From the IMG/VR virus record IMGVR_UViG_3300021399_000005, positions 102,805 to 166,804 of that record: 64,000 nucleotides of DNA. One strand, written 5' to 3'. A program made the position numbers and the translations under genes. Origin of the DNA: a virus. Its lineage: Duplodnaviria > Caudoviricetes. The notes below the pieces were generated by a model that saw nothing but the letters and a program-made list of their open reading frames with translations, was not told the origin of the DNA and did not search any database. Positions 19,977 to 36,561 of this stretch are shown here, in pieces (position 1 is the stretch's first letter; each line of letters opens with the position of its first letter).

Positions 19977-20330
19977 CTAGTCTTCTTCCTCTACTTCGTC
20001 TTCTGCTAACTGGTAGAAAGTTACACGCTTCTCAACAATCTTTTCTACATTACCAGCTTCTACTGCTACCTTCATAGCAGGAGCTAATTTCTGAGTAGTT
20101 ACATCTAACATGTCAGCTAAATCCTTTGCACGGTACTTAACTCCAGCTTCCATAACTTCTACAGCACGGTCAGCTAACTCTAACTTTGCAGTGTTTACAC
20201 GAGGCTTGCGCGCAGTTGCTCGCTTCTCTTGTGCGGCCTTTAATGCGATTAATTTTTCCTTAACTTCCTCATCCTGTACGGCCTCAATTGCTAATGCTAA
20301 TGCAGCTACATAAGTCATCTTCTGTTCCAT
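19977..20330 (-). CDS. Winged-helix protein, paralog 1 of 5
   Basis: KMTY..AL..AI, RKPRVN, YR..DLA.ML.V.TQKL.PA, VEKRV..Y. Confidence 0.8.
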   Translation of the reverse strand: MEQKMTYVAALALAIEAVQDEEVKEKLIALKAAQEKRATARKPRVNTAKLELADRAVEVMEAGVKYRAKDLADMLDVTTQKLAPAMKVAVEAGNVEKIVEKRVTFYQLAEDEVEEED

Positions 20331-20618
20331 AAGTTTCACCTGTTTTTTAACCTTTCTTTTTTCCTTATTTCTATATATATTATACATTATTTTTTTGCTA
20401 TTGTCCAATAAAAAAAATCTATTACAAAATCATTCCATCTAAAAATTTTTTAGAACCTTTTGGGAAACCAAGGGAAGGCCAAAGTGCGCAGTTGCGAAAT
20501 TAAAAAAGGGCCAAAGCGTGCCACTTTTGAAAACGCCGCGCCCCGGAGCTGGCCCCCGGCCGCGCGGCGCCAAACGCTCTTTTAGTTACTTAAATATAAA
20601 GGTATAAAAAAAAGAAGC

Positions 20619-20963
20619 TTATTCAGCTTCTTGCGCAGTGTAGAATGCTACACGTTTTACGACTTCTTTTACAACACGGCCGTCACCCAACAACAGGCCC
20701 ATAGCCGGAGTCAATTTTTGAGTAGATACGCCCAGCATTTTAGCCAAATCAGCCACTCGGTAAGCAACACCTTTTTCCATGATGTCATAAGCTTTTTCAG
20801 CCAACTCGATTTTAGCAGTGTTTACACGTGGTTTACGTTTCTGCGCTTTGCGGTCAAGCTGGTCTTTAAGTGCCTGAAGTTTCATACCTACTTCAGTATC
20901 CATGCCAACATGGCCAATAGCAACGTCAAGAGCATCAGCATAAGTCATTTTGATTTCAGTCAT
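20619..20963 (-). CDS. Winged-helix protein, paralog 2
   Basis: Same motifs as 19977-20330. Confidence 0.8.
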   Translation of the reverse strand: MTEIKMTYADALDVAIGHVGMDTEVGMKLQALKDQLDRKAQKRKPRVNTAKIELAEKAYDIMEKGVAYRVADLAKMLGVSTQKLTPAMGLLLGDGRVVKEVVKRVAFYTAQEAE

Positions 20964-21300
20964 ACATTTCACCTTTTACCTTTCTTTAGGATTTCCTATC
21001 CTTTTTACACTTATATTATATAATAATTTTTTGAATTTGTCTAATACTTAAAAGCTATAGCAAATTATTTCCTATATCAAAAAAGTATATCAAATTTGGA
21101 ATTAGTTTAGGGCGCTAAAGGACTTTTGGGAAACTGCGCGAAGGCCTAAAGCGGGACGTAACCGGTAGCAAAAATCTGAAAATCATATGAAAATCAGATT
21201 CGCTCCGCCTTCCAGCTCTCCGAGCGCAGGCGGAGCGCCAAATCATATGAAAATCCTATTTTCGCAAACATAATAAAAAAAGGGATATATTATCCCTTTC

Positions 21301-21660
21301 CTATGCTTTTGGCTTGCGATGCGCAGTTAATTTCAGAGTGTACTCTTTACCATTGTAACCAAAGTTAATTTCGGTTTCAGTTTTTACATTTGCAATTTCG
21401 GCAATTTGCTCAAGTGCCGGAAGAATCTGTTCAATAATGAACTTTTTATCCTCATCAACCTTGCGCTCTTTAACAGCTTTTTTACGTTCCTTTCCTTTTG
21501 GTTTCAGCTGTTGCTTAAGTACTGCTTTTGTACCCTCATCAAGAGTAGTGTTCTTTTCCTTGTCAATTTCAAGGTCATCTAAGTACATTTGTTCAGCTTC
21601 TTCACGGGTCAAGCCCAGCGCCATGTTAGCTTTAATCATATCTTCTTTTGTGCGTGCCAT
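21301..21660 (-). CDS. Hypothetical basic protein
   Basis: 119 aa; own promoter and AAGGTG SD. Confidence 0.75.
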   Translation of the reverse strand: MARTKEDMIKANMALGLTREEAEQMYLDDLEIDKEKNTTLDEGTKAVLKQQLKPKGKERKKAVKERKVDEDKKFIIEQILPALEQIAEIANVKTETEINFGYNGKEYTLKLTAHRKPKA

Positions 21661-21958
21661 GTTATCACCTTTCCTTTTCTATAAATATTGTATCAGATTT
21701 TTATGGGTCTGTCAATATCTTTTTTTATTTTCCTTTCCCTTTATCTATAAATATTATATCATATTTTAAAAATTTTGTCAACAACAAATTTATTTTTTTG
21801 ATTTTTGGGAAAATCAGCTAGAAAAGTGACATGCATAATGTCAATATGAAAATCATATGAACATCACAAACAACAAACTCGTCGCCCTTGCAGCAAAGCG
21901 CCCGCAAGGGCGACGCCAAAGGCTATGGGAAAAGGATAGGATTTTCCTATCCCTATTC

Positions 21959-22300
21959 CTATTCGGTTACCAACTGGTACTTAGCAACACGCTTTTCGAT
22001 AGCCTTAGCAACGGCACCGTTTTCAACGGCTACCCCTAAAGCTGGGGTTAACTTCTGAGTAGATACCCCTAAAATCTTAGCTAATTCAGCTGTACGGTAA
22101 GCAACCCCAGGCTCCATAATAGCCACTACCTTTTCAGCCAATTCAGCCTTTTCCTTGTTCACACGTGGCTTGCGATTTTCAGCCTTATGAGCTAACTGCT
22201 CCTTTAATGCAATTAACTTTTCTCCAACTGGGGTTTCAGCTCCAACTGCTTCAATAGCGTTCTCCAATGCAATTGCGTAAGTCATCTTAGTTTCTGTCAT
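21959..22300 (-). CDS. Winged-helix protein, paralog 3
   Basis: Same motifs as 19977-20330. Confidence 0.8.
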   Translation of the reverse strand: MTETKMTYAIALENAIEAVGAETPVGEKLIALKEQLAHKAENRKPRVNKEKAELAEKVVAIMEPGVAYRTAELAKILGVSTQKLTPALGVAVENGAVAKAIEKRVAKYQLVTE

Positions 22301-22695
22301 AGTTATCACCTTTTACCTTTCTTTCTTGGGATTTCCTTTCCCTTTTTACATCTTTATTATACTATGAATTTTTTTATTTGTCAACAGGTTTTTTTATTTT
22401 TTTGATTTCTGTTTTTTTACTTCCTTTCCCTATTGACACTTATATTATATATTATTTTTTTAAAATTGTCGAATACTTGTAAACTATATCTAGACCTTCT
22501 GCTATATAAAAAAGCTATATCTGATTTTCATATGATTTTGGGATAAGCATAAAAAAGGTCATTTGTCAAGTGTTTTTTTCAAAAATTTTTTAAAAGTTAG
22601 TCTTGACAAACCCGGCAGCCCTGCGCCCCTACGCAACATTTATGATTGCGCAGGGCTGCCGCCGACGGCATACAAAAAAAATAGTCCATTTTGGA

Positions 22696-22896
22696 CTATT
22701 GTATAATCTCATCTATGACTGCATAATTGTAATATTCCCAGTAAAGCTTTTCAAGTTGGCTTTCATCTCCCTCTAAATACTCATTAAGAAGATACTTCTT
22801 TAATTTTCGTTCTGCTTGTTCATAATCATTAGCAAAAACTTGAATAAGTCTAGCGTTTTCCATGCAATAGAAGAAAAAGATTCCCATTTTTATCAC
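22696..22896 (-). CDS. Small acidic early protein (family A)
   Basis: Own promoter and SD; FFF..QVFANDYEQA motif. Confidence 0.68.
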   Translation of the reverse strand: MIKMGIFFFYCMENARLIQVFANDYEQAERKLKKYLLNEYLEGDESQLEKLYWEYYNYAVIDEIIQ

Positions 22897-22957
22897 CTTT
22901 TCACCTTTCTTTTTACATTATTATTCTATCATAAGGGGTTGATTTTGTCAACCCCTT

Positions 22958-23647
22958 TTAATCAATTCTATTCTTTTGTACTTTCATCCAACAGGAATAT
23001 TTTAAACCATAATCGCAAGAGCCTTTGAAGTGTTTTTTAATATACTTAAAGATTTCTGATTCATCCAAAGCGTCATTTAATGCCGTATGACATTCAATAT
23101 AAGCAACATCATTTGTAATGTATCTATACATTGTTTCAGCACTTGTGGAAATATTTCCCTTTTCTGAAATGCAACCATTTTCATATGCCCATTGAACAAA
23201 TTGAGCAGTCTGTCCAACAGTATTACAAGCTAAGTTCCATAAGCAGAGTAATTTTTTCTTTTCAATTTTTGAAATTGTCTTTTGAGAATGACAGAAGAAT
23301 TCTTCACTATATTTAATAGCTTTAATATCAAATTGAAGATTGTATGCGCCAATACAGGATACATTATGTTTGCGCACATCAAACCATAACTCTTTTAAGA
23401 TTTCGCTAAAGTTTAAAACCATTTCTTGTTTACGAGCTTTTGCATAGTCTTTTTTGTAGCCTTGGTAGAAGTCGGAAGTGTCTAAAATCCACTTCCCGTT
23501 GACATGTAATTCTTTTACTAAGAATCGTTTTTTACAAACGATTTCACCTTTTGATAAAACTACATATCCTAAATCGTGTACAAGTGGGGAACCAAACGTT
23601 CCGATTGTTTCAGTGTCTAAAATCATAATATTTCTTGGTGTTCTCAT
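22958..23647 (-). CDS. DEDDh 3'-5' exonuclease
   Basis: ExoI ILDTET, ExoII AYNLQFD, ExoIII HTALND. Confidence 0.88.
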   Translation of the reverse strand: MRTPRNIMILDTETIGTFGSPLVHDLGYVVLSKGEIVCKKRFLVKELHVNGKWILDTSDFYQGYKKDYAKARKQEMVLNFSEILKELWFDVRKHNVSCIGAYNLQFDIKAIKYSEEFFCHSQKTISKIEKKKLLCLWNLACNTVGQTAQFVQWAYENGCISEKGNISTSAETMYRYITNDVAYIECHTALNDALDESEIFKYIKKHFKGSCDYGLKYSCWMKVQKNRID

Positions 23648-23709
23648 TTTTCTTATCTCCTTTAACTGTCTATATTGTATCATGGAAGGGTTGAGATGTC
23701 AACCCTTTT

Positions 23710-23943
23710 TTAATTAAAAATTATATCTTTTTCATTGTATTCGTAAACATGATAGAAATAAATAAGGCTTGAATCGCTTGTGATTTTGCTCACAACCTCA
23801 TAGTCCGGATTCTCAACTCCATCTTGTTTAAGCAAGTCAAGATTTTTTTCAAAAGCGATATGAAATGCGCCATTATAAATATAACATAAATCATCTGTTA
23901 ATTCTACATCACCGTAGACGTCTTCAATATACACACCAAACAT
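23710..23943 (-). CDS. Small acidic early protein
   Basis: Promoter plus GGAGGT SD. Confidence 0.7.
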   Translation of the reverse strand: MFGVYIEDVYGDVELTDDLCYIYNGAFHIAFEKNLDLLKQDGVENPDYEVVSKITSDSSLIYFYHVYEYNEKDIIFN

Positions 23944-24217
23944 TTTGTGTACCTCCTTTATCTGATTCTATAATAAGGGATAATTAAAAAAATGTCAACA
24001 AAAAATTTCGATAAGCACAAAACTTTTATTTGTCAAGCATTATTTTTGGGAAGCACAAAAATTCTTTTTGTCAAGGTCCAATTTGGACTAAAAATGCTGA
24101 AAGGTTAGTGTTGACAAACTCGCCGCCTTGACGTGAAAAAGCGTGCGTCAAGGCGGCGCCCAACGCAAGCTAAAGATTTCTGATTTTCATATGAAGAGGG
24201 GAAGTTCCCCTCTCCGA

Positions 24218-24550
24218 TTAGACTAAGCGATACAGAGCTACACGCTTTTCGATATGCTTTTCAATCTGTCCACCCTCAACGGCAACAGTCATAGCTGGAG
24301 TTAATTTCTGTGTAGACACGTCAAGCATTTTAGCAAGTTCAGCAACACGGTAGTCAGTGTTAGGTTCCATAACCTCAACTACCTTTTCGGCAAGGTCAAG
24401 TTTTGCCTGATTTACACGAGGTTTACGGTTAGCTGATTTGTGCGCTAACTGTTCTTTAAGAGCAGTTAATTTTTCCTTAACCTCTGCGTTGTCAACTGCG
24501 TTGATTGCGTTTTCTAAAGCTACTGCGTAAGTCATTTTTTCGTTTGTCAT
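24218..24550 (-). CDS. Winged-helix protein, paralog 4
   Basis: Same motifs as 19977-20330. Confidence 0.8.
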   Translation of the reverse strand: MTNEKMTYAVALENAINAVDNAEVKEKLTALKEQLAHKSANRKPRVNQAKLDLAEKVVEVMEPNTDYRVAELAKMLDVSTQKLTPAMTVAVEGGQIEKHIEKRVALYRLV

Positions 24551-25062
24551 AATTTTATCACCTTTTACCTTTCCTTTTGTGTCTTTATTATAACACTTTA
24601 TTTTTCTTTTGTAAAGAGGAAATTTATATTTTTTTCAGTGGGATTTTTCTTTATTTCCCTTTCCTTTTTACAATATAATTATATACTATTTTTTTAAAAC
24701 TGTCTAATACTTAAAAAGTATAGGAAAGCTTTTCATATATCAAAAAAGTATAGCAAAGGGTTTTAGGATTTTCATATGAATAAAAAAAATCAAGTTAGTC
24801 TTGACAAACTATTGGTGGATGTGGTACAATAAAATTTCGGCGTCCAGTCGTATAATGCGCTCGACTGGACGCCGACAAATAAAAAAAATAGTCCGAAATT
24901 GGACTAAATTAAGATTTTTTCGTTTTTCTTGAGGTAATTTCTAAAGCACGTTCAAATCCTTTCCTATATGCTTCTTTAATAGAATCGTCAACAGTGCAAT
25001 CTTTATTGAAATAGTTTCTGATTACAATGGCTTTTTTCTTTTCATATAATTTATTTTTCATT

Positions 25063-25314
25063 TTATTTTCCTCCTCTTTCTGATTCTATTATACCACTTT
25101 TTATTAAGCTGTCAAGCAAATTTTCTGAAAATTTACTTTCAAAATTTTCAAATTCTCCGGCATTAAAAGCTATAATTTCCATCACTGTTCTAATACCATA
25201 CATAAAATTGATATTACCATTTAAAGCATCATATTTTCCACAAAACAGTGGAGTTTGTTTTAAATTTTCTAACACAATTTGATAAGCTTTTTTTGTTTCT
25301 TTTCTATTAGCCAT
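25063..25314 (-). CDS. Hypothetical early protein
   Basis: Start MANRK after promoter and GAGGA SD. Confidence 0.7.
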   Translation of the reverse strand: MANRKETKKAYQIVLENLKQTPLFCGKYDALNGNINFMYGIRTVMEIIAFNAGEFENFESKFSENLLDSLIKSGIIESERGGK

Positions 25315-25526
25315 ATATGTTTTCCTCTTCTTTCTGATTATATTATATGCTATTATATTAAAATTGTCAACTAATTTTAGGAAAAAAGTTAAAAAATATT
25401 TTTTTAAAAAAGTCTTGACAAAAGAGTATGAATGTGATACAATGTAGATTTCGGTTGGTCTGCGCAAAGAGGCGACCGCAGACCAACCGCCAATCATATG
25501 AAAAAGGGTAGCCCCTTTTGGGCTAC

Positions 25527-25865
25527 CTATTCTGCTTTCAGCTGGTACTTAGCTACTCGCTTTTCAACGATTTTTTCAACAGTACCCTTTTCAACTGCGA
25601 CCTTTAAGGCTGGCGCAAGTTTCTGAGTGCTCACCTCAAGGATTTCAGCAAGCTCGGAAGTACGGTACGCTACTCCAACCTCCATAATTTCAGTTACCTT
25701 TTCAGCTAAATCTAACTTAGCTTGGTTGATTCTCGGTTTGCGAGTTCCAGCTTTATGCGCTAACTGTTCCTGAAGGGCTACTAATTTCATTCCTGTTTCA
25801 GTATCACGTCCTACTGCCTCAATTGCCTGTTCTAAAGCTACGTTGTAAGTTAATTTGTTTTCCAT
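25527..25865 (-). CDS. Winged-helix protein, paralog 5
   Basis: Same motifs as 19977-20330. Confidence 0.8.
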   Translation of the reverse strand: MENKLTYNVALEQAIEAVGRDTETGMKLVALQEQLAHKAGTRKPRINQAKLDLAEKVTEIMEVGVAYRTSELAEILEVSTQKLAPALKVAVEKGTVEKIVEKRVAKYQLKAE

Positions 25866-26439
25866 GTCATCACCTTTTAACCTTTCCTTATTGACATCTT
25901 TATTTTAACAGATTTTTTAGAGTCTGTCAACTCTTTTTTTTAAAATTTTTCGATTGCGCAATCTATGCTTTTTTCTTTTTTAACCATGTGGAACAGAGTT
26001 TTTTCTTTTCATGGGCTTTCATCTTAGGCAGAAAGCAACCTCTGAAAATGTCCTTATATTTATAGAGGCTTCGGCTTTTCAGTTGCCCATCCCTCATTTT
26101 GCGTAGAAAAGAGTTTTAATTTTTCGATTCACCCACCACTCTCATAGAATCTCTGTTTCATGGGGCATGACTCCCAGCGTGGAACTGTCTTTTATCCTTT
26201 CGGTCTTGTTTTTACCCAAGTAACTCTTTTTACATCTTTAGTATAACAGATTTTTTCAAATCTGTCAATACTTTTTTTTTGAAAGTTTTTTCCATTTTTT
26301 TGGTTTAATTCTTTTTAGGGATAGAAACCTCACGAGCGTGAAAACTTTCAAACACTCGTTTCAGAACCCTTTCAGAGTTTCCTCTGATTACATAATTAGT
26401 ATAGCAGATTTTTTATCTCTTGTCAATACTAATTATCTA

Positions 26440-26519
26440 ATCAAAGGGGAAAGGGATGAAAGGAGGAGGAAAATTCCCTTTCCCGTATCTAAAGGTTAGT
26501 AATTTTCTTTTCTTTTTAC
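26440..26519 (-). ncRNA. Candidate sRNA with anti-Shine-Dalgarno loop (copy 1)
   Basis: TTGACA-N17-TATAAT at 26554-26526; no ORF; stem GGGAAAGGGA/TCCCTTTCCC with loop TTTTCCTCCTCCTTT. Confidence 0.6.
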
Positions 26520-26911
26520 ATCTTTATTATACTTGATTCTTTTTTATTTGTCAAGTATTTTTTAAAGATTTTTTTGTAAGGAGCTTTTTCTATTTCTCTT
26601 TACATTATAAGTATATCAGATTTTTTAAAATCTGTCAATACTTTTTTTAGAAATCTTTCAGAGGATTTTTTATCTCTCTTCCTTATTTCTATATAAATTA
26701 TATACTAATTTTTTATAAAAATCAATAGGGAATTTCACATAAGCATAAAAAAATTTGTTTGTCAAGAGGGAATTTTGGGAAGCATAATTTTTTTATTTGT
26801 CAATAGCCATTTTGGTCTAAAATTGGTAGGAAGTTAGTCTTGACAAATTCGCTCCCCTGGCATAAAATGCGTGCGCCAGGGGAGCGCCAAGCGCAAGTAG
26901 TCCAAAATAGA

Positions 26912-27097
26912 CTAATAATCTTCATCTGGCTCAATTAAATAGCAAGTTTTCATTTCTTCATTTCTTGTGAATCTAAAGGTAATTTCTTCAATCATAACTT
27001 CACAAAAGGGTTCGCTTTCACCATTGATAAGGATTTCTTCATCTTGTTTTAATGTTTCTAATACTTCAATCAACTCCCTTACTTTCATTTTATCCAC
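26912..27097 (-). CDS. Small acidic early protein
   Basis: Promoter and SD; similar to 28145-28330 (ELIxxL..D.E). Confidence 0.65.
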   Translation of the reverse strand: MDKMKVRELIEVLETLKQDEEILINGESEPFCEVMIEEITFRFTRNEEMKTCYLIEPDEDY

Positions 27098-27146
27098 CTC
27101 TCTTTACATTCTTATATTACCATATGGGTTGACTTCTGTCAACCCA

Positions 27147-27359
27147 TTATTTTAAAATTTTTCTAATTGTTAATTCTGTGTAGCAGTCATAAAAAACGTC
27201 TTTAGCTTCATCTTCATCATAGCCTTCTTTTTCCATTAAATATTCAATCATTTTGTCACTTGCCGTTGAACGATTTTCAGCCATAATGACAACAACCTCA
27301 TCCTCTCTAAAAGAATCTCTGTCTAAAAATAAATATTGATGTAATTCGTCTCCCCACAT
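27147..27359 (-). CDS. Small acidic early protein (family A)
   Basis: YLFLD..VIMAENRSTA. Confidence 0.68.
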   Translation of the reverse strand: MWGDELHQYLFLDRDSFREDEVVVIMAENRSTASDKMIEYLMEKEGYDEDEAKDVFYDCYTELTIRKILK

Positions 27360-27419
27360 TGTTTTTATTTCCTTTCTTTTCTGATTATATTCTACTATAA
27401 AGATTAGACTTTGTCAACC

Positions 27420-27617
27420 TTATTCTAAAACTTTTTTAAGTTTTAATTCTCTATAATACCAATCAAACCAACCTTTTTGATGTTCCATAGCTTCTTTAGT
27501 CCATCCTTCATCTGCTAAAGAGTAAATGAGTTTATTTTTAGCTTCGTCTAATGTATCAGCATAAACGATATAAAATTCATCTTCGGATTCTTCATCTAAA
27601 AATACATAGTTATTCAT
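27420..27617 (-). CDS. Small acidic early protein (family A)
   Basis: YVFLD..IVYADTLDEA. Confidence 0.68.
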   Translation of the reverse strand: MNNYVFLDEESEDEFYIVYADTLDEAKNKLIYSLADEGWTKEAMEHQKGWFDWYYRELKLKKVLE

Positions 27618-27641
27618 TTTTATTACCTCTTTTATTATATT

Positions 27642-27854
27642 TTAATCAATTTTTTTAAAATCAACTGGAATAAATTCTTTCACGTAAATATTATTATCTA
27701 TTTTTTCGTGATGGTGGTATCCTAAATGTTTTTCTAAAAAATTTGTTTTATCAATATATTCAAAGAATTTTTGTTTTGCTTCTCGATAATTTTCAGCTTC
27801 TAACATATAACCTGCAGTTTCATATTCACGAATTAAGAAAAAATATTGATTCAT
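27642..27854 (-). CDS. Small early protein (family A)
   Basis: Start MNQYFF after GAGGT SD; MLEAENYREA. Confidence 0.65.
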   Translation of the reverse strand: MNQYFFLIREYETAGYMLEAENYREAKQKFFEYIDKTNFLEKHLGYHHHEKIDNNIYVKEFIPVDFKKID

Positions 27855-28144
27855 TTTATTTACCTCTTTTTCCTTCTCTTTTATCACATAACCAAAAAAT
27901 GAAATCATGAACATACCCGAATATATATAAAATAGCAAATAATGCGAACATAAGTAAAACGATTATTTCATCCATTGTGTATTTACCTTTCCTTTTCTGA
28001 TTATATTTTATCATGGAAGGGGCTGAAAGTCAACCCCTTTTTAGAAATTTTGATTTAAGAACATGTATTTTTTCATTTCAATCTTTTGTGTTTTAATTGT
28101 CATTATAATAAATACTAAAAGTAATGTCCTCATTTTATCACCTC

Positions 28145-28330
28145 TTATTCAAAGATTATTCCTTCAATCATAAGAATCGTTTCTCTTTTTGTGTTGGATA
28201 AATCTCTTGTTGAAATAAGATAAATATCTTCTTCTGTAAGTGGAATTTTCATATAATCTATATCTCTAGTATAAACCTCTGCGTCTAATGGCATAGTTTG
28301 CAAAATATTAATTAATTCTTTATTTGTCAT
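28145..28330 (-). CDS. Small early protein
   Basis: Start MTNKELINIL after AAGGAG SD. Confidence 0.65.
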   Translation of the reverse strand: MTNKELINILQTMPLDAEVYTRDIDYMKIPLTEEDIYLISTRDLSNTKRETILMIEGIIFE

Positions 28331-28404
28331 ATTGTTTCTCCTTTTTTCTATAATTATTCTATCATTTTTCTGTTGAGGTGTCAAGGGGAAATTTTCATTT
28401 CCCC

Positions 28405-28572
28405 TTAGTAGGTATCATATCCCCACATTTCAGCAACCTCATCGGTATCAGTGCAAATGTAAGAGAAATCGCGCAAGCCGTTTTCTAATGCGATATGAAC
28501 AGCTTCGTGGATATCCTCAGCCTGTACATAGAAAGTATAACCGTCTTCAGTTTCAAATAAGTAATTCATCAT
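28405..28572 (-). CDS. Small acidic early protein (family A, 55 aa)
   Basis: MMNYLFETEDGYTFYVQAEDIHEA; promoter and SD; not in ORF track. Confidence 0.65.
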   Translation of the reverse strand: MMNYLFETEDGYTFYVQAEDIHEAVHIALENGLRDFSYICTDTDEVAEMWGYDTY

Positions 28573-28789
28573 TTTAAGTTCCTCGCTTTCCTTATTTCTG
28601 ATTAAATTATAAGCTATTCTTTTAAATTTGTCAACTAATTTCGGGAAAAAAGTTTAAAAAATTTTTGTTGAAAAAAGTCTTGACAAAAAGCTGAAAATGT
28701 GATATAATTAAAAAACGCTGACCTTGCGGCTGGACGATAGCAAGAGGTTGCCGCAAGGTCAGCGGCAACGCAAGCAAGTTTATTTTGGA

Positions 28790-29011
28790 CTAATCATCTG
28801 AAAATTTTTCTTCGTAGATATGGTAGTAATCATTATAGGTATCTTTTGTTAACTCGGCAATCACTTCATCAGAAACTTCTTCTTCACCAGTTTCATTAAA
28901 ATAAATTTCAGTATTTCCATCAATGCAGAAATCCCAAGCTTTTTGATAGTCTTTAAAGAAAATGAAGAACCCAAGGTCTAAACCACTATGAACCATATAA
29001 AATTTTTCCAT
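28790..29011 (-). CDS. Small acidic early protein
   Basis: Start MEKFY after AAGGTG SD. Confidence 0.65.
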   Translation of the reverse strand: MEKFYMVHSGLDLGFFIFFKDYQKAWDFCIDGNTEIYFNETGEEEVSDEVIAELTKDTYNDYYHIYEEKFSDD

Positions 29012-29073
29012 TTTTATCACCTTTCCTTTTCTATAATTATTATAGCAGATGGTAAGGGGTTTTGCAACCCCTT

Positions 29074-29319
29074 TTACCAAATTTCAGTAATTAATTTATC
29101 GTGGTCTATTCTTACAAGTTTAATCAGTGTTCTACGAGCTTGTTTCAATTCGTCTTTTGTTATTTCCTCAACGATTTCAGCAGTTTGAGGGTTAATTTCA
29201 AGAATTTCTTTGTCGTCCGGGATAGTGTCATCCAAATCAGCAATTAATGCCCAGGTTGCAAAAATGGCTCTTTTATCTCTTGCGTTAAAATTTACTTCAG
29301 TTCTAGTTGTGATGTCCAT
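29074..29319 (-). CDS. Small acidic early protein
   Basis: Promoter and SD; weak similarity to 29384-29635. Confidence 0.68.
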   Translation of the reverse strand: MDITTRTEVNFNARDKRAIFATWALIADLDDTIPDDKEILEINPQTAEIVEEITKDELKQARRTLIKLVRIDHDKLITEIW

Positions 29320-29383
29320 TATTTTTTCCTCTCTTTCCTTATCTGTATAAATTATACTATATTGAGAGGGGTTTTGTCAACCC

Positions 29384-29635
29384 CTATTTCTCAACAATTT
29401 GAATTTTATTATCATCAAAAATAAATTCCGTTAAATCTTCTAAAAATCCTCCTACCGTTTCAAGATTTCTCATATCCATTGTTCTTTTTTCATTATTAAC
29501 GCTTTGAATATAGTGATGGTAATAGTCCCAATCACAAATGTCCTCACAAAAATCTATCATGAGTTTATATACGGTACGAATAGCTTGAACCTCTTCTGTT
29601 GAAAGTGTAACAATTGTAACTGTTTCTTTTGTCAT
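29384..29635 (-). CDS. Small acidic early protein
   Basis: Promoter and SD. Confidence 0.68.
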   Translation of the reverse strand: MTKETVTIVTLSTEEVQAIRTVYKLMIDFCEDICDWDYYHHYIQSVNNEKRTMDMRNLETVGGFLEDLTEFIFDDNKIQIVEK

Positions 29636-29825
29636 AAATTTTTTTCCTCTACTTTCCTTATTTCTATATAAATTATATATTATTTTTTAATAGTTGTCAA
29701 ATAGAAATTTTGGGAAAGCACAAAATTTTTTGTTTGTCAAGAAAAAATTTAAAAAAATGTCGTGGAAGTTAGTCTTGACAAACTCGTTCCCTGTGCCAAG
29801 GACGCGCGCACAGGGAACGCCAAAT

Positions 29826-29902
29826 AAAAAAGCAGGAGCCTTGCCCAAAGGAGGAGGAAAAATGGCAAGCCCTGCGTTAGAAATTTTCTATATCCTTTTT
29901 AC
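29826..29902 (-). ncRNA. Candidate sRNA with anti-Shine-Dalgarno loop (copy 2)
   Basis: TTGACA-N17-TATAAT at 29937-29909; stem GCAGG..CTTGCC/GGCAAG..CCTGC, loop TTTTTCCTCCTCCTTT, then U-tract. Confidence 0.62.
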
Positions 29903-29933
29903 ATTTTTATTATACAATATTTTTTTTCTTTTG

Positions 29934-30152
29934 TCAATCAATAATTTCAATATTTTTACTAAAAATCATTCTACCTTCAGTTACATTTTCTTCTATAATA
30001 TCTTCAATAAGGGTACAACAATTTTCATCTTCATCTTCAAAATCATATTCTTTATAATTTTCATCCCAGAAATAAACAAATTCTCCAAATTTAACTTTTT
30101 TTGGCGGATTTTCATTTTTTACCATTTCTAATAATTCAAAGTAACTAATCAT
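29934..30152 (-). CDS. Small acidic early protein (tandem paralog of 30202-30420)
   Basis: MISYFELLEM...KNIEIID; TGA stop overlaps next TTGACA. Confidence 0.7.
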   Translation of the reverse strand: MISYFELLEMVKNENPPKKVKFGEFVYFWDENYKEYDFEDEDENCCTLIEDIIEENVTEGRMIFSKNIEIID

Positions 30153-30201
30153 ATTCTTTACCTCTTTTCTGCCTTTATTATACAATATCTTTTTTCTTTT
30201 G

Positions 30202-30420
30202 TCAATCAATAATTTCAATAATATTTTTAGTTATTAATTCAATAGGGTCAAATTCTCTTGAAACATCGCCAAGCAAAGAATAAGACTCATAAGGCTCATG
30301 TTCTCTACCCTTCCGAAAGTATCCATTGTCCCATCGATATACAGAATCGTTATAAAAAACTCTTTCCGGCTGAGTTCCCTTTTCTTCCATTTCTAATAAT
30401 TCAAGATATGTTACCATCAT
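30202..30420 (-). CDS. Small acidic early protein
   Basis: MVTYLELLEM...KNIIEIID; TGA stop overlaps next TTGACA. Confidence 0.7.
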   Translation of the reverse strand: MMVTYLELLEMEEKGTQPERVFYNDSVYRWDNGYFRKGREHEPYESYSLLGDVSREFDPIELITKNIIEIID

Positions 30421-30481
30421 TTTTTTTACCTCTTTTCTGATTATATTATATAAAAATAAAAGAGATTTGTCAATCTCTTTT

Positions 30482-30949
30482 TTATATAATTTTGCTTTGT
30501 TTTAATTCGTTTAATCTATCAATTAAGTTTTCTTCTGTTGGGTTGATGGTATGTCCCATTTTCCAACCTTTTCTAATTTTATCATTATCATCTACTAAAA
30601 TTTGATAACCACCGTTTTTTCTAGTGCAATTTGCTTTTGTAGTTCCATACTTTACTAAATGGATTTCATCATATGGAAACTCATATTTTTCTAACCAATT
30701 TAATTTTGCAACTCTAACGGCATTGTCATAATCTTTTGTAGCGTTTTTTGCAAGCCATGTTGTAATGGCTATTTTCCACCCCTTTTTCTTTAATTCTACT
30801 AAAACGTTCTTTAAAGCTTTCATATCCCATAAAGGTTCACATACTTCATAAGGTCTAGTATTTTCGTTTTCTAAATCATTCAGCCATCCATCTACACCAT
30901 AGAAATTATTTAAAGTTCCATCCATATCAAATACTAAAGTTTTATTCAT
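30482..30949 (-). CDS. HAD-superfamily hydrolase (5'(3')-nucleotidase-like)
   Basis: LVFDMDGTL motif I, KLNWL, ILVDDN motif IV. Confidence 0.82.
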   Translation of the reverse strand: MNKTLVFDMDGTLNNFYGVDGWLNDLENENTRPYEVCEPLWDMKALKNVLVELKKKGWKIAITTWLAKNATKDYDNAVRVAKLNWLEKYEFPYDEIHLVKYGTTKANCTRKNGGYQILVDDNDKIRKGWKMGHTINPTEENLIDRLNELKQSKII

Positions 30950-31187
30950 TGTTATGTCCTCCTCTTTATCTGTCTATATTATAGCAGTTACATAATAAGA
31001 AGTCAACAGAAACCGTATGTAACTTTTATGTAACTAGTTAGCTGTGACTAACAGGAAAAAGTGCGAACTTTGGCAATAGACCGTTTTGGACTAAAAATTT
31101 GGTAAAAATTAGCCTTGACAAACTCGCCCCCTTCAGCTGACATGGGCGTGAAGGGGGCGCCAAACAAAAAAGAGCCTTGGCAGACTC

Positions 31188-31472
31188 TTAAATGTCATAT
31201 GAAGTAGCACCCCAGCAAACTGAGCAGTCAGAGAAATGATACCATTCATACATGTCAGAACAATCACACTCAATTGATTCATGCTTAAGAAGCTCTTTAG
31301 CGCAGTAGATTTTTGTATAATCTACATCACGATATTTTTCACCCCAGTCTTCATCGAAACCAATGAAATCGTTGGTGTCAATGTAGACCATTGTAAATCC
31401 ACGCTGAGGAACGATTCGCCATTCAACATCCTTACCTAACCATTTCAGCATTTCTTTGATTTCTTTTAACAT
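31188..31472 (-). CDS. Hypothetical early protein
   Basis: Promoter and GGAGG SD. Confidence 0.7.
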   Translation of the reverse strand: MLKEIKEMLKWLGKDVEWRIVPQRGFTMVYIDTNDFIGFDEDWGEKYRDVDYTKIYCAKELLKHESIECDCSDMYEWYHFSDCSVCWGATSYDI

Positions 31473-31553
31473 ATTGTTTTCCTCCTTTGGAGCTTAGCTC
31501 CTTTATCTGATTATATTATAGTTGAAGATTAGGAAAAAGTCAAGGACTTTTTC

Positions 31554-31700
31554 CTAAAACTTTTCAACCTGAATGATGTTGTCTTCTACGTATTCAGTTC
31601 CGTAAATGTCACAAAGCAGCTCCCAAGCAGTTTCAACGCAAATGGCTTGAATAATTTCAGCTGTTCCATCCGTTGTATCTAAGAAATAAAAGTTTGTCAT
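31554..31700 (-). CDS. Small acidic early protein (family A, 48 aa)
   Basis: MTNFYFLDTTDGTAEIIQAICVETA; promoter and AAGGAG SD. Confidence 0.6.
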   Translation of the reverse strand: MTNFYFLDTTDGTAEIIQAICVETAWELLCDIYGTEYVEDNIIQVEKF

Positions 31701-31769
31701 GCTGTGTTCTCCTTATCCTTTTTACATCTTTATTATATACTAGATTTCTTCTATTGTCAACAAGAAATT

Positions 31770-32018
31770 TTAATCTTCTTGTTCAATTACATAAAAGTAA
31801 GCGATTTGTGTCCAATCAATTTCACGACCATTCCACAGAGTGCTTGGTTTTTCAATGTTTAATCTTTCACATTCAGTTTGAACATGTTCAAAAGTTTCAT
31901 AAGTTAGATAAGCTAAAAATTCATCACATGCTGTCTCCCATTGAGTGCCTTTATTATAAACTGTTGGTTCTACTGTCTTGTAGCAAACTGCTCTGATAAG
32001 TTCCTTTTGTTTTTTCAT
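31770..32018 (-). CDS. Hypothetical early protein
   Basis: Promoter and SD. Confidence 0.68.
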   Translation of the reverse strand: MKKQKELIRAVCYKTVEPTVYNKGTQWETACDEFLAYLTYETFEHVQTECERLNIEKPSTLWNGREIDWTQIAYFYVIEQED

Positions 32019-32324
32019 TGTCTTGTCCCTCTTTCTGATTATAATATATCATTGACTTTGTCTTTTGTCAACAAAATTTTGGGATTTTTTTATAAAAAAT
32101 TTTTTACAAAAAAGTCTTGACAAAAGTTGCCGGGATGTGATATACTTTAAATTCGCCCCAGCTGCTTTGGTCGTGGCACAAAGATCCCCGCAGCTGGGGC
32201 GGCAAACCTTATTATAACATGAAATCAAAATTTTGTCAAGCATTTTTTAAAAATTTTTTCATTTTAAATTTTTCCTTTTTCTATCTTTAGTATATCACAA
32301 AAATAAGAGGGTGTCAACCCTCTT

Positions 32325-32579
32325 TTAATCAAAATCTGCATAATTTATTTGTTTATCGTAATCTGTTACCTCTAAATTTTTTAATTCAGTAAACATGTCT
32401 TGATTTTCAAGCAAGAAGTCATATACCATATCTTCTTGATTACTAGACCATTTTTCAGGATTGAGGGGAATACGTTTCTTTAACTCTTTATTTATTTTTT
32501 TAATTAAATTTGGAGTAATTTCAAGTTCAAGGTGTTTTGTAACAGTGGTTATGTCTTCTCTAATGATGTGGAATTTCAT
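32325..32579 (-). CDS. Hypothetical early protein
   Basis: Promoter and AAGGAG SD. Confidence 0.68.
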   Translation of the reverse strand: MKFHIIREDITTVTKHLELEITPNLIKKINKELKKRIPLNPEKWSSNQEDMVYDFLLENQDMFTELKNLEVTDYDKQINYADFD

Positions 32580-32634
32580 TTTAAAATCTCCTTTTCTTTT
32601 TACATCTTTATTATACGGATTTCATTTCAAAATG

Positions 32635-32817
32635 TCAATAGTCTTTTCCATATTTTTTTAAAATTATACCATTTAAAATTAAAATAAATGAAATCAAAAT
32701 CAAAAATGGAATACTTTTCAATGAAAAATCATTCACACAAGCTAAGAAAAATAAAATAAGAATAGATACTGTTTCAATGGTTAGTTGGATTGATGGTCTT
32801 AAAAAACGTCTTTTCAT
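32635..32817 (-). CDS. Small membrane protein (2 TM)
   Basis: Two hydrophobic stretches; AAGGAG SD. Confidence 0.62.
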   Translation of the reverse strand: MKRRFLRPSIQLTIETVSILILFFLACVNDFSLKSIPFLILISFILILNGIILKKYGKDY

Positions 32818-32892
32818 TTTATGGGGTCTCCTTCTTTTTACATTTATATTATATCATTTTTTTATACGGATATCAATAAAAAAACTGAGATA

Positions 32893-33132
32893 TTATCTCA
32901 GTACATAGAATAGATTTAAAGCAACCATTGCTAAATTTAAACAAATCAAATTAATACGGGAGCCCGTTAAACTATAACATAAACTAATTAAACAGCCTGT
33001 GAGAAACAGATAATTCATGTTATGTCCGGTGATAATACCAATTGCGCAGATGATATAAATTAAGCTAATTAAATCGTTTAATTCAAAGTGATATTTTTTG
33101 TTCAATTCAAATTTTTCTTTTAAGTTTTTCAT
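32893..33132 (-). CDS. Small membrane protein (3 TM)
   Basis: Hydrophobic; GAGGAG SD. Confidence 0.65.
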   Translation of the reverse strand: MKNLKEKFELNKKYHFELNDLISLIYIICAIGIITGHNMNYLFLTGCLISLCYSLTGSRINLICLNLAMVALNLFYVLR

Positions 33133-33497
33133 TTTTCTTTTCTCCTCTTGGGGTTTCTTTTCTTACCCCTCTTTCTGATTATATTATACGGGATACTGTT
33201 GTAAAAGTCAAGTAAAAAAGTCTCAAGAAGAGACTTTTTTAAATTCTTGTTTTAGTAATTTTAAAATTTTTAATTGTGAAATCAAATGTTTTTTGAATTC
33301 TTTTTAATTCAACCAGGGCTTCAATCTCATTAGTGAAAACCATTTTCATTATTTCTGTTGTTTCAAAAAATTCTATTTCTAATTTATATATTGATACGGT
33401 CATAGTCTTAACCTTCCTTTTCTAACTATATTATACCATACCATTTTCAAAAATCAATATCAAAAACCCCTTTTTTAGGGGTCTATTTTATTTTTCT

Positions 33498-33719
33498 TTA
33501 ATTTAATTCTACGGGCTTGCGGTTAAACCAAAATGCCAAGTCAATTGCTTTGTCAAGGTTCCTTAAATATCTATTCAATGCTACTTGACGTCTTCCCATT
33601 TCACCAGCTTTGTTCTCGTTGCCGTGCGCCAAATACCACTGCTCAGCCATGAATAATCCTTCTCTATAAGTGCATTGTAATGTCCAATAATCCTTCTTAA
33701 ATTGTTCAGATGTTTTCAT
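33498..33719 (-). CDS. Hypothetical early protein
   Basis: Promoter and GAGGAGG SD. Confidence 0.68.
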   Translation of the reverse strand: MKTSEQFKKDYWTLQCTYREGLFMAEQWYLAHGNENKAGEMGRRQVALNRYLRNLDKAIDLAFWFNRKPVELN

Positions 33720-33790
33720 ATGGGGTTCCTCCTCTTTCCCTTTATCTGATTAAATTATATATCATCCATTTAAAAAAGTCAATCACTTTT

Positions 33791-34066
33791 TAGTCCAAGT
33801 TGGTCTATTTTAAAACTTTTTTGGTTAGTTATGACTAACTGTTAAAAAGTTACTTTTTCTTACAATTAGTTAAGGCTAACTAACCATTTAGTTAAGGTAA
33901 TTAATGGTTAGCCTTGACTAACTAAAAAGTGAAGGTTAGTCTTGACAAACTGGTTTAGACCATATTGGTCTAAGTTAGTTGCAACTAACTATTTTAGGAA
34001 AGTTAGTCTTGACTAACTCTTTAGCTTGTGATAGACCAAATTGGTCTAAGGTTAGCCTTGACTAAC
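33791..34066 (+). repeat. Dense cluster of two palindrome families: GTTAG-N6-C(T/A)AAC and TAG(A/T)CC-N5-GG(A/T)CTA
   Basis: At least 6 copies of the first and 3 of the second within 280 bp; further copies dispersed 22.6-31.1 kb. Confidence 0.8.
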
Positions 34067-34166
34067 TCGGCGGCGCGCGAGTCCTCACCCAATGCAGAGG
34101 CCTCCGCCGCGCCGCCGACGCATGGCCAATAAGTGCACTCTCTAGCTTTGAAGAGAAGAAGAAGAC

Positions 34167-34385
34167 TTAGTCTTCTTCTTCAAAGAATTCAAGAATGTCT
34201 TCAGCAAGTTGACAACCTTCTTCAATTGCTTGAAGATAAGCGTTGCCATACATTTGCTCTGCATAGTCGTTGCCAAAGTATAAGTCAATCAATCTGTGTT
34301 CATAGTGAAAGTGTGCGTTTAAGTCATAGTTGTTGTCATCTGTCATCGCCAATAAAGCTTTTGCATAGTTCTCTGTTAGTGTCAT
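34167..34385 (-). CDS. Very acidic small early protein
   Basis: GAGGAG SD; D/E rich. Confidence 0.7.
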   Translation of the reverse strand: MTLTENYAKALLAMTDDNNYDLNAHFHYEHRLIDLYFGNDYAEQMYGNAYLQAIEEGCQLAEDILEFFEEED

Positions 34386-34436
34386 TTTCTGTGTCTCCTC
34401 TTTCTTTCTATTGTACCCAAGATTTAAGATTTGAGC

Positions 34437-34871
34437 TTAAGCCCAAATCTTAAAATTGTTTACTACTTGATTGTATCGTGTTTCTACACCATGAGCAACA
34501 AGCCAATGATATAATGCAAGTGTTGCTTCAGCATCATAGCGTGGGTCATGAGCTTTAACCAATGTGATACCTGCCCATTTGCAAACATCTCCAAGCTTTA
34601 AAGATGGTTTACCATTCTTGTTAAGCTTCTTTTGTGTGTCTTTATAAGTGCTGATTCTTACAAATCTAACAAACATCTCATAGACATCAATGTATTTAAC
34701 AGTGTTTCTATCAATGCCTAACTTGTGCAAATCTACCATAATATTGTAACCTACTAATACAACATCATTATGGCTTTTAACATAAGCGTTAAACTCGTTA
34801 ACGTCTCTTGTGATTGTACTATAGAATAAACCTCTGTTATATTCATAGTCTAGTGTGATTAAGTGTTTCAT
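34437..34871 (-). CDS. Short DEDDh exonuclease-like protein
   Basis: LDYE, VGYNIMVD, AHDPRYDA. Confidence 0.75.
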   Translation of the reverse strand: MKHLITLDYEYNRGLFYSTITRDVNEFNAYVKSHNDVVLVGYNIMVDLHKLGIDRNTVKYIDVYEMFVRFVRISTYKDTQKKLNKNGKPSLKLGDVCKWAGITLVKAHDPRYDAEATLALYHWLVAHGVETRYNQVVNNFKIWA

Positions 34872-34961
34872 AATTGCCTCCTCTTTAAGCCTTTATAGAA
34901 CGTCTTTATGTAAAGCGTTCTAACCAATGACAAGCTTGTTATGTCTTGTCATTGGTTAGAA

Positions 34962-34977
34962 TGTTTCACGTGAAACA
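34962..34977. promoter_or_regulatory. parS: Perfect parS (ParB/Spo0J-binding) palindrome
   Basis: TGTTTCACGTGAAACA, intergenic, 16/16 match to the widespread bacterial consensus. Confidence 0.88.
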
Positions 34978-34983
34978 TTCCTT

Positions 34984-35163
34984 TTAATAAAGCTCATCTA
35001 CCCATCTATTGATATGGTAGCAGTAACCGATTTCTTCATGGTTAGTACCATTCAAGTCATCGATATAAGCAATGATTAATGTGATTAAATCAGTATGAAC
35101 GTTTGCGTTTTTTCCGTTCCATTGATTGAATTGTTCTAATGCCTTTTGATATAAGTTTGTCAT
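34984..35163 (-). CDS. First gene of the leftward early module, hypothetical
   Basis: TTGCAT-N17-TATAAT promoter and GAGGT SD. Confidence 0.65.
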   Translation of the reverse strand: MTNLYQKALEQFNQWNGKNANVHTDLITLIIAYIDDLNGTNHEEIGYCYHINRWVDELY

Positions 35164-35517
35164 GATTTTTACCTCTTGCTTTTTATTAAAGCTTCCTTTC
35201 ACTTATTATTATACTCAAACAGTCATACAATGCAAGCGTTTTTATGCAATTTGTTAAAAAAATTTTTCTAAATTTTACGGGACTGTTTTTTTATTGCGTT
35301 GTCATAAAAAATATAATACGTATGTAGATTTTATATTTTATGGGCGGGTATATTTTGGGATGTCATATTTTTTTTAGAACGATTGGGAATCGCCACGTAT
35401 TCTCTTCGACTCAAATTACATTTGAGCCTGATAACGATCTATTTATAATCTCCAACCTTTTCTAAACCCCTAACTCTTAAAATTTTTGTTATAATATTTT
35501 TGAAAGAGAGGCCAAAA

Positions 35518-36561
35518 ATGTTAAAACTTGACTATACAATAGACTCTCCAGAAGAAAGAAGGGACTTGGTTTCTAGGATTTTAGAAGAAAACCCCAACCC
35601 CAATAGATACTATCTGGAGATACTAGCAAATTACATAATAACAGCAGTAGAAAAAAAAGAACGTCAAACTTTAGCAGAAAACCGTCTCGCAACAATAAGA
35701 AAAAACGAAACCTCCTTTGAAGGATTAGCCGCTCAATTTGAGAATGGCGAAGATGGCATCTATAATCTCGCTGAATCAAATCGCCACGCAATCCTTCATC
35801 CTACACCTAAAATAACTAAAAAAGACTTAGAAGATATTCCAGAGTTGCGCGAAACGCAAAAATCAATAGCTTTCTGAGATGATATGGTAAAAAAATCCGA
35901 GGGAATAGACAAATTCATAGCTAAGAAAGCTCTTATTGCAACGAGAAAAGATCAGTTCGATATAAAGATGGCGTTTAAACCTGTTATTCAATCTAACCAT
36001 AAAGTGCGCTCGACGCACGATATTCCTTTAGATGAGGAAGTCTTGGTAACTCCCCAAGGCATAACCGCGCATGGAGTTTCCCTTTTAAATCCAAAAGTAT
36101 GCTCCGCCATCCTCTGCAACTATTCTCAAGCAGTAGAATCAGCTTACGGCAGACCAGAATCCGATCTTTGACTTCTTCTCTTGGACTTTGATAACGTGGC
36201 CGGACTCGCTTTAGAGCCCCATCCACTCTACTACCGATTAGTAGAACTCAAAGTTGACGGCAAGCGCAACTCAGAAATTCAATCTGCTCTTGAAGAAGAA
36301 TTTGGAATCCATTATTCTGTAGAATATATCTCTTCTCTTTGGCGAAAAAAAATTCCAGCAATTATTGCCTCAAAAGCAGAAGACCTATACCTGGACTGAT
36401 ATTACCTAAACGAAAAAAAAGGTACATATAAAAAATGTTCTCGTTGTGGGCAAATTAAATTAGCAATACCTAAGTACTTTTCAAAGAATAAAACGGCAAA
36501 GGATGGACTTTATTCCATCTGTAAAGAATGCCGCAACAAAAAAGGAAAAGGAGGAAAATAA
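35518..36561 (+). CDS. HTH plus C-terminal Zn-finger protein upstream of terminase (347 aa, 3 TGA=Trp)
   Basis: Fragments in one frame joined by TGA; sigma-region-4-like helix ([14 protein letters not shown]); CSRC..CKEC; ends TAA. Confidence 0.8.

Follow-up and report, generated by a model that had tools for sequence, protein, structure and literature searches.

Two candidate early small RNAs of a rumen phage with one anti-Shine-Dalgarno-like loop on unrelated stems

The final 64 kb of the 166,804-bp IMG/VR virus record IMGVR_UViG_3300021399_000005 (positions 102,805 to 166,804 of the record; this 64,000-nucleotide stretch is called the window, and coordinates refer to it) contain two short minus-strand units, S1 and S2, each composed of a consensus sigma-A promoter, a leader and one stable hairpin. 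The two hairpins expose the same 15-nt sequence in their loops, on stems that share nothing. Judged by sequence, S1 and S2 are probably small RNAs (sRNAs) that mask ribosome-binding sites. Our favoured explanation, to which we give a probability of roughly 0.45, is that they are paralogous early phage sRNAs whose loop, resembling the tail of 16S rRNA and complementary to Shine-Dalgarno (SD) sequences, would pair with SD regions, with S2 doubling as an operon terminator. Masking of an SD by an RNA loop is a known bacterial strategy that has rarely been described in phages.

Structure of the two units

An earlier note on this DNA had described, at both sites, about 80 nt without an open reading frame (ORF) behind a consensus sigma-A promoter, folding into a hairpin with a common 15-nt loop sequence on unrelated stems. 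This description is borne out, and the presence of two promoter-hairpin units with a common loop is confirmed: both promoters match the consensus at all positions, no AUG-led or SD-led frame is present in either RNA, and the 15-mer lies ~45 nt downstream of the promoter in each unit, within an 18-nt loop. The features of the two units, with energies and unpaired probabilities from the predicted folds, are as follows.

26526..26554, minus strand: S1 promoter, TTGACA-17-TATAAT, 12/12 (-35 box at 26554-26549, -10 box at 26531-26526), of the same type as 28 gene promoters of the surrounding module
26439..26519, minus strand: predicted S1 RNA, ~80 nt, no ORF; start placed near 26519 from the position of the -10 box
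Minus strand: S1 leader, A-rich, 35 nt, AUGUAAAAAG..AGAAAAUUACUAAC, homologous to the S2 leader by alignment
26447..26484, minus strand: S1 hairpin, 38 nt, -16.2 kcal/mol for the hairpin alone
26484-26475 with 26456-26447, minus strand: S1 stem, 10 bp, GGGAAAGGGA/UCCCUUUCCC
26474-26457, minus strand: S1 loop, 18 nt, AUUUUCCUCCUCCUUUCA; probability that the 15-mer is wholly unpaired, 0.95
29909..29937, minus strand: S2 promoter, TTGACA-17-TATAAT, 12/12 (-35 box at 29937-29932, -10 box at 29914-29909)
29822..29902, minus strand: predicted S2 RNA, ~80 nt, no ORF; start placed near 29902; leader of 27 nt
29832..29875, minus strand: S2 hairpin, 44 nt, -16.4 kcal/mol
29875-29864 with 29845-29832, minus strand: S2 stem, 12 bp with two bulges, GCAGGGCUUGCC/GGCAAGGCUCCUGC
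29863-29846, minus strand: S2 loop, 18 nt, AUUUUUCCUCCUCCUUUG; probability that the 15-mer is wholly unpaired, 0.80
29822..29831, minus strand: S2 terminator U-tract, UUUUUUAUUU

At the RNA level the shared loop sequence, UUUUCCUCCUCCUUU, is identical in S1 and S2. The 12-bp stem of S2 (-16 kcal/mol) is followed by U6AU3 and forms a clear rho-independent, intrinsic terminator, while the tail of S1 (CUUUGAUU) is weak, with four U in eight, and lacks the U-run that should follow the stem of such an element. Other terminators of the module have loops of 3-6 nt, as against 18 nt in S1 and S2. The -35 box of S2 overlaps the TGA stop codon of a 72-aa gene (30152..29934). An own promoter, the absence of an ORF, 3' structure and seed conservation, which together characterize trans-acting sRNA genes in general, are found in both units. 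A cmscan search of 20000-36000 against Rfam (E ≤1) returned only two matches, both to microRNA families and far below their gathering scores.

Both units lie in the early module of the phage, a minus-strand array of small genes that occupies 19-36 kb of the window. On the minus strand of this module 39 sites match TTGACA-16/18-TATAAT at 11 or more of the 12 positions, and 28 of them are located 24-50 nt upstream of an SD and start codon of an ORF of at least 30 codons, so the promoter model is well founded for this genome. Promoters and SDs of the phage are of the Firmicute type.

The 15-mer TTTTCCTCCTCCTTT occurs on the minus strand at 26459-26473 (S1) and 29847-29861 (S2), and with up to one mismatch allowed these are its sole copies in the 166,804-bp genome; with up to two mismatches the window holds five matches, compared with 0.39 expected from shuffled sequence. 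As a null set we took 195 other occurrences of the 15-mer, 112 in IMG/VR contigs and 83 in prokaryote genomes, and computed folds in which the motif was kept open. Hairpins of -10 kcal/mol or better enclose just two of them, both on phage contigs (L024 and L042), and -14 is reached by none; S1 and S2 give -15.1 and -16.1 kcal/mol under the same folding. Most occurrences elsewhere are found inside ORFs or as the complement of the SD of an opposite-strand gene. Against this null set, the display of both copies in one genome in a hairpin loop is not due to chance.

The phage members of the comparison deserve a separate description. In L024 (IMGVR_UViG_3300044996_000325), an unrelated high-GC phage, the 15-mer lies in an intergenic hairpin with an 18-nt loop, AUUUUCCUCCUCCUUUUG, nearly identical to those of S1 and S2. 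L042 (IMGVR_UViG_3300010413_000033), another unrelated phage, has the motif, and a second CCUCCUU with it, nested in a long terminator-like stem, and the unrelated phage contig L018 carries the 15-mer in an intergenic hairpin loop. That loop display of the 15-mer might be enriched in phages is only a hint, at 2/112 in the IMG/VR sample.

Paralogy and conservation

S1 and S2 are paralogous, with replacement of the stem. They align from the -10 box across a shared initial transcribed sequence (ATGTAAAAAG) and the box AGAAAATTNCTAAC, and then again in the loop. The stems in between are unrelated, four of the first five base pairs counted outward from the loop differing on both sides, yet each is perfectly or nearly perfectly paired. 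Their leaders look like those of neighbouring genes from which the SD has been lost (compare the sequences after promoters 32638 and 31760), and S1 and S2 were therefore probably derived from gene cassettes.

A relative of 95% identity (G001, loci L115 and L145) has both units, and a metagenome scan added four contigs, of which L237 matches S2, L241 matches S1, and L179 and L187 are variants of S2. The only loop change seen is in these two variants, where one additional CCU (CCUCCUCCUCC) lengthens the complementarity. In L179 the unit has different genes on both sides, a different downstream GC hairpin and a promoter that reads TTGACA-16-TACAAT; it has kept a promoter of its own despite the other gene neighbours, and all 45 hairpin positions are unchanged, compared with 23 substitutions at 106 positions of promoter, leader, U-tract and GC hairpin (Fisher p = 1.3e-4). 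L187 shows the same pattern, with 0/45 in the hairpin and 15/103 in the flanks (Fisher p = 3.1e-3), so that the flanks of the S2 variants diverge by 15-22% around an intact hairpin. In four ruminant gut runs, contigs cover both sites, and no hairpin variant is among the best-supported variant positions listed (there are 186 further positions).

The earlier note had proposed a search of related phages for the loop on other stems, and this was rewarded once. Among 21 related phage records, gathered via a neighbouring 155-aa gene, TTCCTCCTCC occurs outside an SD context only in G001 (both units) and in a cousin phage, G005, whose terminator-slot hairpin, GCAGAGCCGG-uuccuccu-CCGGCUCUGC, carries UUCCUCCU, with UCCUCCUUU just upstream. 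The matches in G008 are complements of real SDs, and a scan of the relatives for hairpins with a pyrimidine loop gave no analogue beyond G005. In IMG/VR, the pattern GAAAATTNCTAAC..TTCCTCCTCC returned only the 95% relative and three chance matches in unrelated DNA, and the sole match of a promoter-leader-loop pattern was again that relative. The element is thus real and under constraint, and it is confined to this phage species, its close kin and one cousin analogue.

Proposed function and predicted targets

The shared loop sequence contains CCUCCUUU(C), which corresponds to the 3' tail of Firmicute 16S rRNA. We infer that host sigma-A RNA polymerase would transcribe S1 and S2 from their consensus early promoters at the onset of infection, with ends near those predicted above, and that each RNA would consist of an unstructured A-rich leader followed by the hairpin with its open loop. 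In vivo the loop would pair with SD regions of the AAAGGAGG(AGG)AAAA type, in mRNAs of the host or of the phage, and compete with 30S subunits for the ribosome-binding sites. The predicted outcome is translational repression in trans, as in LhrC, RNAIII, RsaE and the cuckoo RNAs. S2 would serve in addition as an intrinsic terminator of the early genes upstream of it, and because of this their mRNAs would bear the same loop at the 3' end.

For predicted targets we compared the loop with the translation initiation regions (TIRs) of all SD-led ORFs in the genome, called with TGA read through. The earlier note had related the loop to the strong SDs of late genes and considered a brake on premature late expression. 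GGAGG is indeed commoner in late TIRs (10/19, against 8/36 in early ones), but predicted pairing is equal: mean duplex energies are -12.5 kcal/mol for early and -12.7 kcal/mol for late plus-strand TIRs, and a contiguous match of at least 8 nt is present in 8/36 and 5/19, respectively. Predicted pairing thus lends no support to a link with late genes, and the loop would not discriminate early from late. The best phage match is an early 50-aa gene (25061..24909) with 11 contiguous pairs and -22 kcal/mol, followed by the genes starting at 36563, 48573 and 31472 with 10 pairs each; genes 25061, 36563 and 31472 have no Pfam match.

Several observations weigh against the favoured explanation. No target class stands out in the comparison above, and full-RNA fold z-scores are modest (-0.7). 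Among the sequencing runs that contain this phage DNA there is no RNA run. Eighteen of the 21 related records are without the motif, a narrow distribution. S1 has no proper U-tract and another promoter within 20 nt downstream, which leaves its 3' end uncertain, and S2 stands where other gene boundaries carry a plain terminator and so could owe part of its conservation to termination alone.

A broader version of the same idea, which we consider improbable, would make S1 and S2 bulk early decoys, imitations of the 16S 3' tail that absorb the strongest extended host SDs, for example the internal SD of the RF2 +1 frameshift site, thereby tilting translation toward the phage and aiding the reading of UGA as Trp. 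If this were true, the 15-mer in the loops of the unrelated L024, L042 and L018 would make it a convergent module widespread among phages rather than a single case.

Boundary cassette and alternative explanations

S2 (29875-29832) fills the terminator slot of a boundary cassette that is repeated along the minus strand. The parts of this cassette are a hairpin terminator, a U-tract with TTGG at its end, a variable GC-rich hairpin, the box AGTTTGTCAAGACTAAC, the palindrome TTAGACC..GGTCTAA and the promoter that comes next. The remainder of the S2 cassette, given for context only, is listed below.

29755..29819, minus strand: GC-rich hairpin (29819-29787) and boundary box AGTTTGTCAAGACTAAC

At 31189-31170 and 22700-22680 the slot is taken by an ordinary hairpin whose loop measures 3 or 4 nt and which lacks a dedicated promoter; the U-tract TTTTGTTTGG follows it at 31189-31170. 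S2 differs from these plain terminators in its dedicated promoter, 27-nt leader and 18-nt loop. It is the first terminator after the genes 30949..30482, 30420..30202 and 30152..29934, and by its position is predicted to end their mRNAs as well as its own RNA. This dual placement of S2, and the poor terminator predicted for S1, were absent from the earlier note.

The main rival, which we rate as possible though clearly behind, holds that S2 and, less strongly, S1 are only terminator or boundary elements, relics of promoter-gene-terminator cassettes whose small genes were lost, with the loop kept for some other reason (a protein site or shared descent) and the transcripts as by-products. It accounts for the place of S2 ahead of its GC hairpin and AGTTTGTCAAGAC box, in a slot filled elsewhere by plain terminators, for leaders that look like gene leaders with a decayed SD, and for S1 being one of several gene-less promoters in a zone of ~950 nt; metagenome joints, moreover, point to frequent recombination at promoter repeats. 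It does not account for the loop, since 18 nt weakens a terminator, and neutral decay explains neither an identical 15-mer on two replaced and still paired stems nor the absence of substitutions from 45 hairpin positions beside strongly divergent flanks. Nor do plain terminators in the slot have a promoter, which S2 retains even in another gene context. Action of the loop in cis, as an anti-SD in the 3' untranslated region (UTR) that would fold onto the SD of its own mRNA, stop translation, trigger decay and so limit the time of early-gene expression, is an improbable alternative. S2 is well placed for this behind three genes, the SD of gene 30949 (GAGGAGGA) could form 8 contiguous pairs with the loop, and pairing between 5' and 3' UTRs is documented for icaR of Staphylococcus aureus (PMC3868564). 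The two genes nearest S2, however, have SDs of the GAGGUAAA type that pair poorly (~-7 to -10 kcal/mol), no gene lies within ~350 nt upstream of S1, the dedicated promoters of both units would yield the loop without any mRNA, and in L179 the upstream gene differs while the unit is unchanged.

The opposite strand is the least probable seat of function. There the loops read AAAGGAGGAGGAAAA, which could be a displayed SD for a small ORF or a GGA-rich sponge for a CsrA-type protein, and at S2 an ATG with 89 open codons comes after the purine loop; the plus strand of the module also has promoter-like sites of the extended -10 kind (e.g. 28680-28708). The purine tract of S1 is not followed by a start codon, and at S2 the frame, which has the look of an F/I-rich shadow of a minus-strand gene, measures 89, 35, 39 and 27 codons in four strains owing to frameshifts. 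Neither site has a plus-strand promoter directly upstream (a TTGACA at 29774 lacks a -10 box), and it is the minus strand that carries the U-tract. Because the frame is not conserved across the four strains, a plus-strand ORF or type I toxin was rejected. Neither a CsrA nor a bS21 encoded by the phage, as possible partners of the loop, was found in its genome. Two further ideas were set aside: S2 (AAAGGA with UCCUUU) but not S1 would allow leader and loop to pair as an antiterminator in cis, and the mirror-symmetric pyrimidine tract is too short to make H-DNA or a triplex likely.

Genomic setting

The record has direct terminal repeats and encodes 24 tRNAs. Among GenBank phages the portal protein finds only distant relatives, a human-faecal phage contig (52% identity) and the gut phage Phass-1 (35%), and a megablast of 25500-31000 against GenBank phages gave zero matches. 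Near-identical DNA is present in bovine, goat and sheep gut metagenomes.

S1 lies inside an ORF-poor zone of ~950 nt (25950-26900) with five to six consensus promoters in all (26725, 26638, 26554, 26426, 26268). Besides that of S1, four or five are without genes, and one of these repeats, in degenerate form, the promoter and leader at 29700 (gene 29635). A GCUCCUU is present in the short unit after promoter 26638. After the minus-strand promoter 26268-26240, ~285 nt follow before the next promoter (25945-26234), and the only ORF there is a 44-codon ATG frame without an SD (26097..25963). This segment is conserved in L241, which has a second, diverged copy directly upstream of the S1 promoter; it has no Rfam match, and its fold z-score is only -0.56. 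From its sequence it may be a larger non-coding RNA or the gene of a small basic protein with a shifting start.

The initial transcribed sequence AAAGATGTAAAAAG is conserved after at least eight early promoters (e.g. 32638, 31760, 29937, 26554, 26268, 22384), and the predicted +1 of these promoters falls on or beside an AUG-UAA start-stop pair; many early RNAs may hence start with a leaderless minimal ORF. Promoter-like sites of the form AGTCTTGACAAA-17/18-TGTGxTAYAAT, with an extended -10, lie on the plus strand within the module at 24798-24830, 25412-25443, 28677-28708 and 32114-32146, each with a GC-rich hairpin within ~8 nt after it, and could give antisense RNAs against early genes. Compact fusions of terminator and promoter, where the loop or an arm of a terminator hairpin contains the -35 TTGACA of the promoter that follows, were seen on the minus strand at 32324-32305, 27124-27147 and 22930-22955. 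At the boundary of the module (33900-34070) there is a cluster of near-palindromic boxes, of a GTTAGTCTTGACTAAC and a TTAGACCAAT.TGGTCTAA type, which recur as single copies in each boundary cassette and resemble operators for a phage regulator.

A contig of run X20 joins 26531 to 29922, that is, the S1 promoter to the S2 promoter, with 3.4 kb skipped, and other joints likewise link distant promoter repeats. This weakly suggests shuffling or deletion of cassettes by recombination at promoter repeats, the supporting flanks being short (~25 nt).

Comparison with known systems

Lytic phages of Gram-positive hosts seize transcription and degrade host mRNA. Our literature searches returned no experimentally characterised phage sRNA with an anti-SD loop and, as far as they reach, no experimental demonstration of a phage RNA that competes with the ribosome for SD sites. 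For this question S1 and S2 are a clean test case, with two short genes, perfect promoters and an invariant 15-nt loop, where the two stems provide a natural stem-swap control. Even with an inert loop, the pair would still document the punctuation of this phage's early-gene cassettes.

On paper S1 and S2 resemble three groups of bacterial sRNAs, namely LhrC, the cuckoo or CcsR RNAs and the staphylococcal UCCC-loop sRNAs, and by this comparison they are members of none. The Firmicute-type sibling sRNAs LhrC1-5 of Listeria monocytogenes carry a CU-rich motif, CUCCC...UUUU, in their loops, including that of the terminator, and through these loops they block translation of lapB mRNA by binding at its SD region, Hfq being dispensable (PMC4132741). 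Sibling RNAs with CU-rich anti-SD loops, the terminator loop included, are thus common to both. The LhrC RNAs, however, are chromosomal, controlled by LisRK and 111-114 nt long, with three redundant UCCC sites (in loop A, a single-stranded linker and the terminator loop) (PMC4132741), whereas S1 and S2 come from a phage, measure ~80 nt and have a single site per RNA, in the (terminator) loop, with no UCCC in the leader and, in place of a short motif, the core CCUCCUCC in a full 15-mer that resembles the 16S tail.

The cuckoo RNAs (CcsR1-4, alpha-r14), which are confined to alphaproteobacteria, display an identical anti-SD-like loop, CCUCCUCCC, on freely varying stems, in two to four adjacent hairpins per RNA of 24-50 nt with loops of 9-27 nt (PMC4615179). 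The constant loop on variable stems is the same principle, and the hairpins of S1 (38 nt) and S2 (44 nt) with their 18-nt loops fall within these sizes. Each of our transcripts would nevertheless have a single hairpin, the GC hairpin past the S2 U-tract being without such a loop; their loops have CCUCCUCC followed by UUU and not by C, which agrees with CCUCCUCCC at 8/9 positions (in L179 and L187 the loop reads CCUCCUCCUCC); and S1 and S2 are two separate genes with Firmicute-like promoters and SDs and no Rfam match.

In staphylococci and bacilli, C-rich loops seed SD pairing in RNAIII (including its terminator hairpin), RsaE/RoxS and SprD, as summarised in PMC4132741 and PMC4615179. These are other sequence families, cellular regulators with specific regulons whose seeds are short UCCC motifs, in contrast to the 15-nt pyrimidine tract of S1 and S2. 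In icaR of S. aureus an anti-SD UCCCCUG in the 3' UTR acts in cis on the 5' UTR of the same mRNA (PMC3868564). Its position in a 3' UTR close to the terminator is shared by S2, which would likewise form the 3' end of upstream mRNAs; S1 and S2 differ in having promoters of their own, and S1 in having no upstream gene. The anatomy of S1 and S2, two ORF-free promoter-hairpin units with an exposed anti-SD loop, matches that of the SD-occluding sRNAs of Firmicutes.

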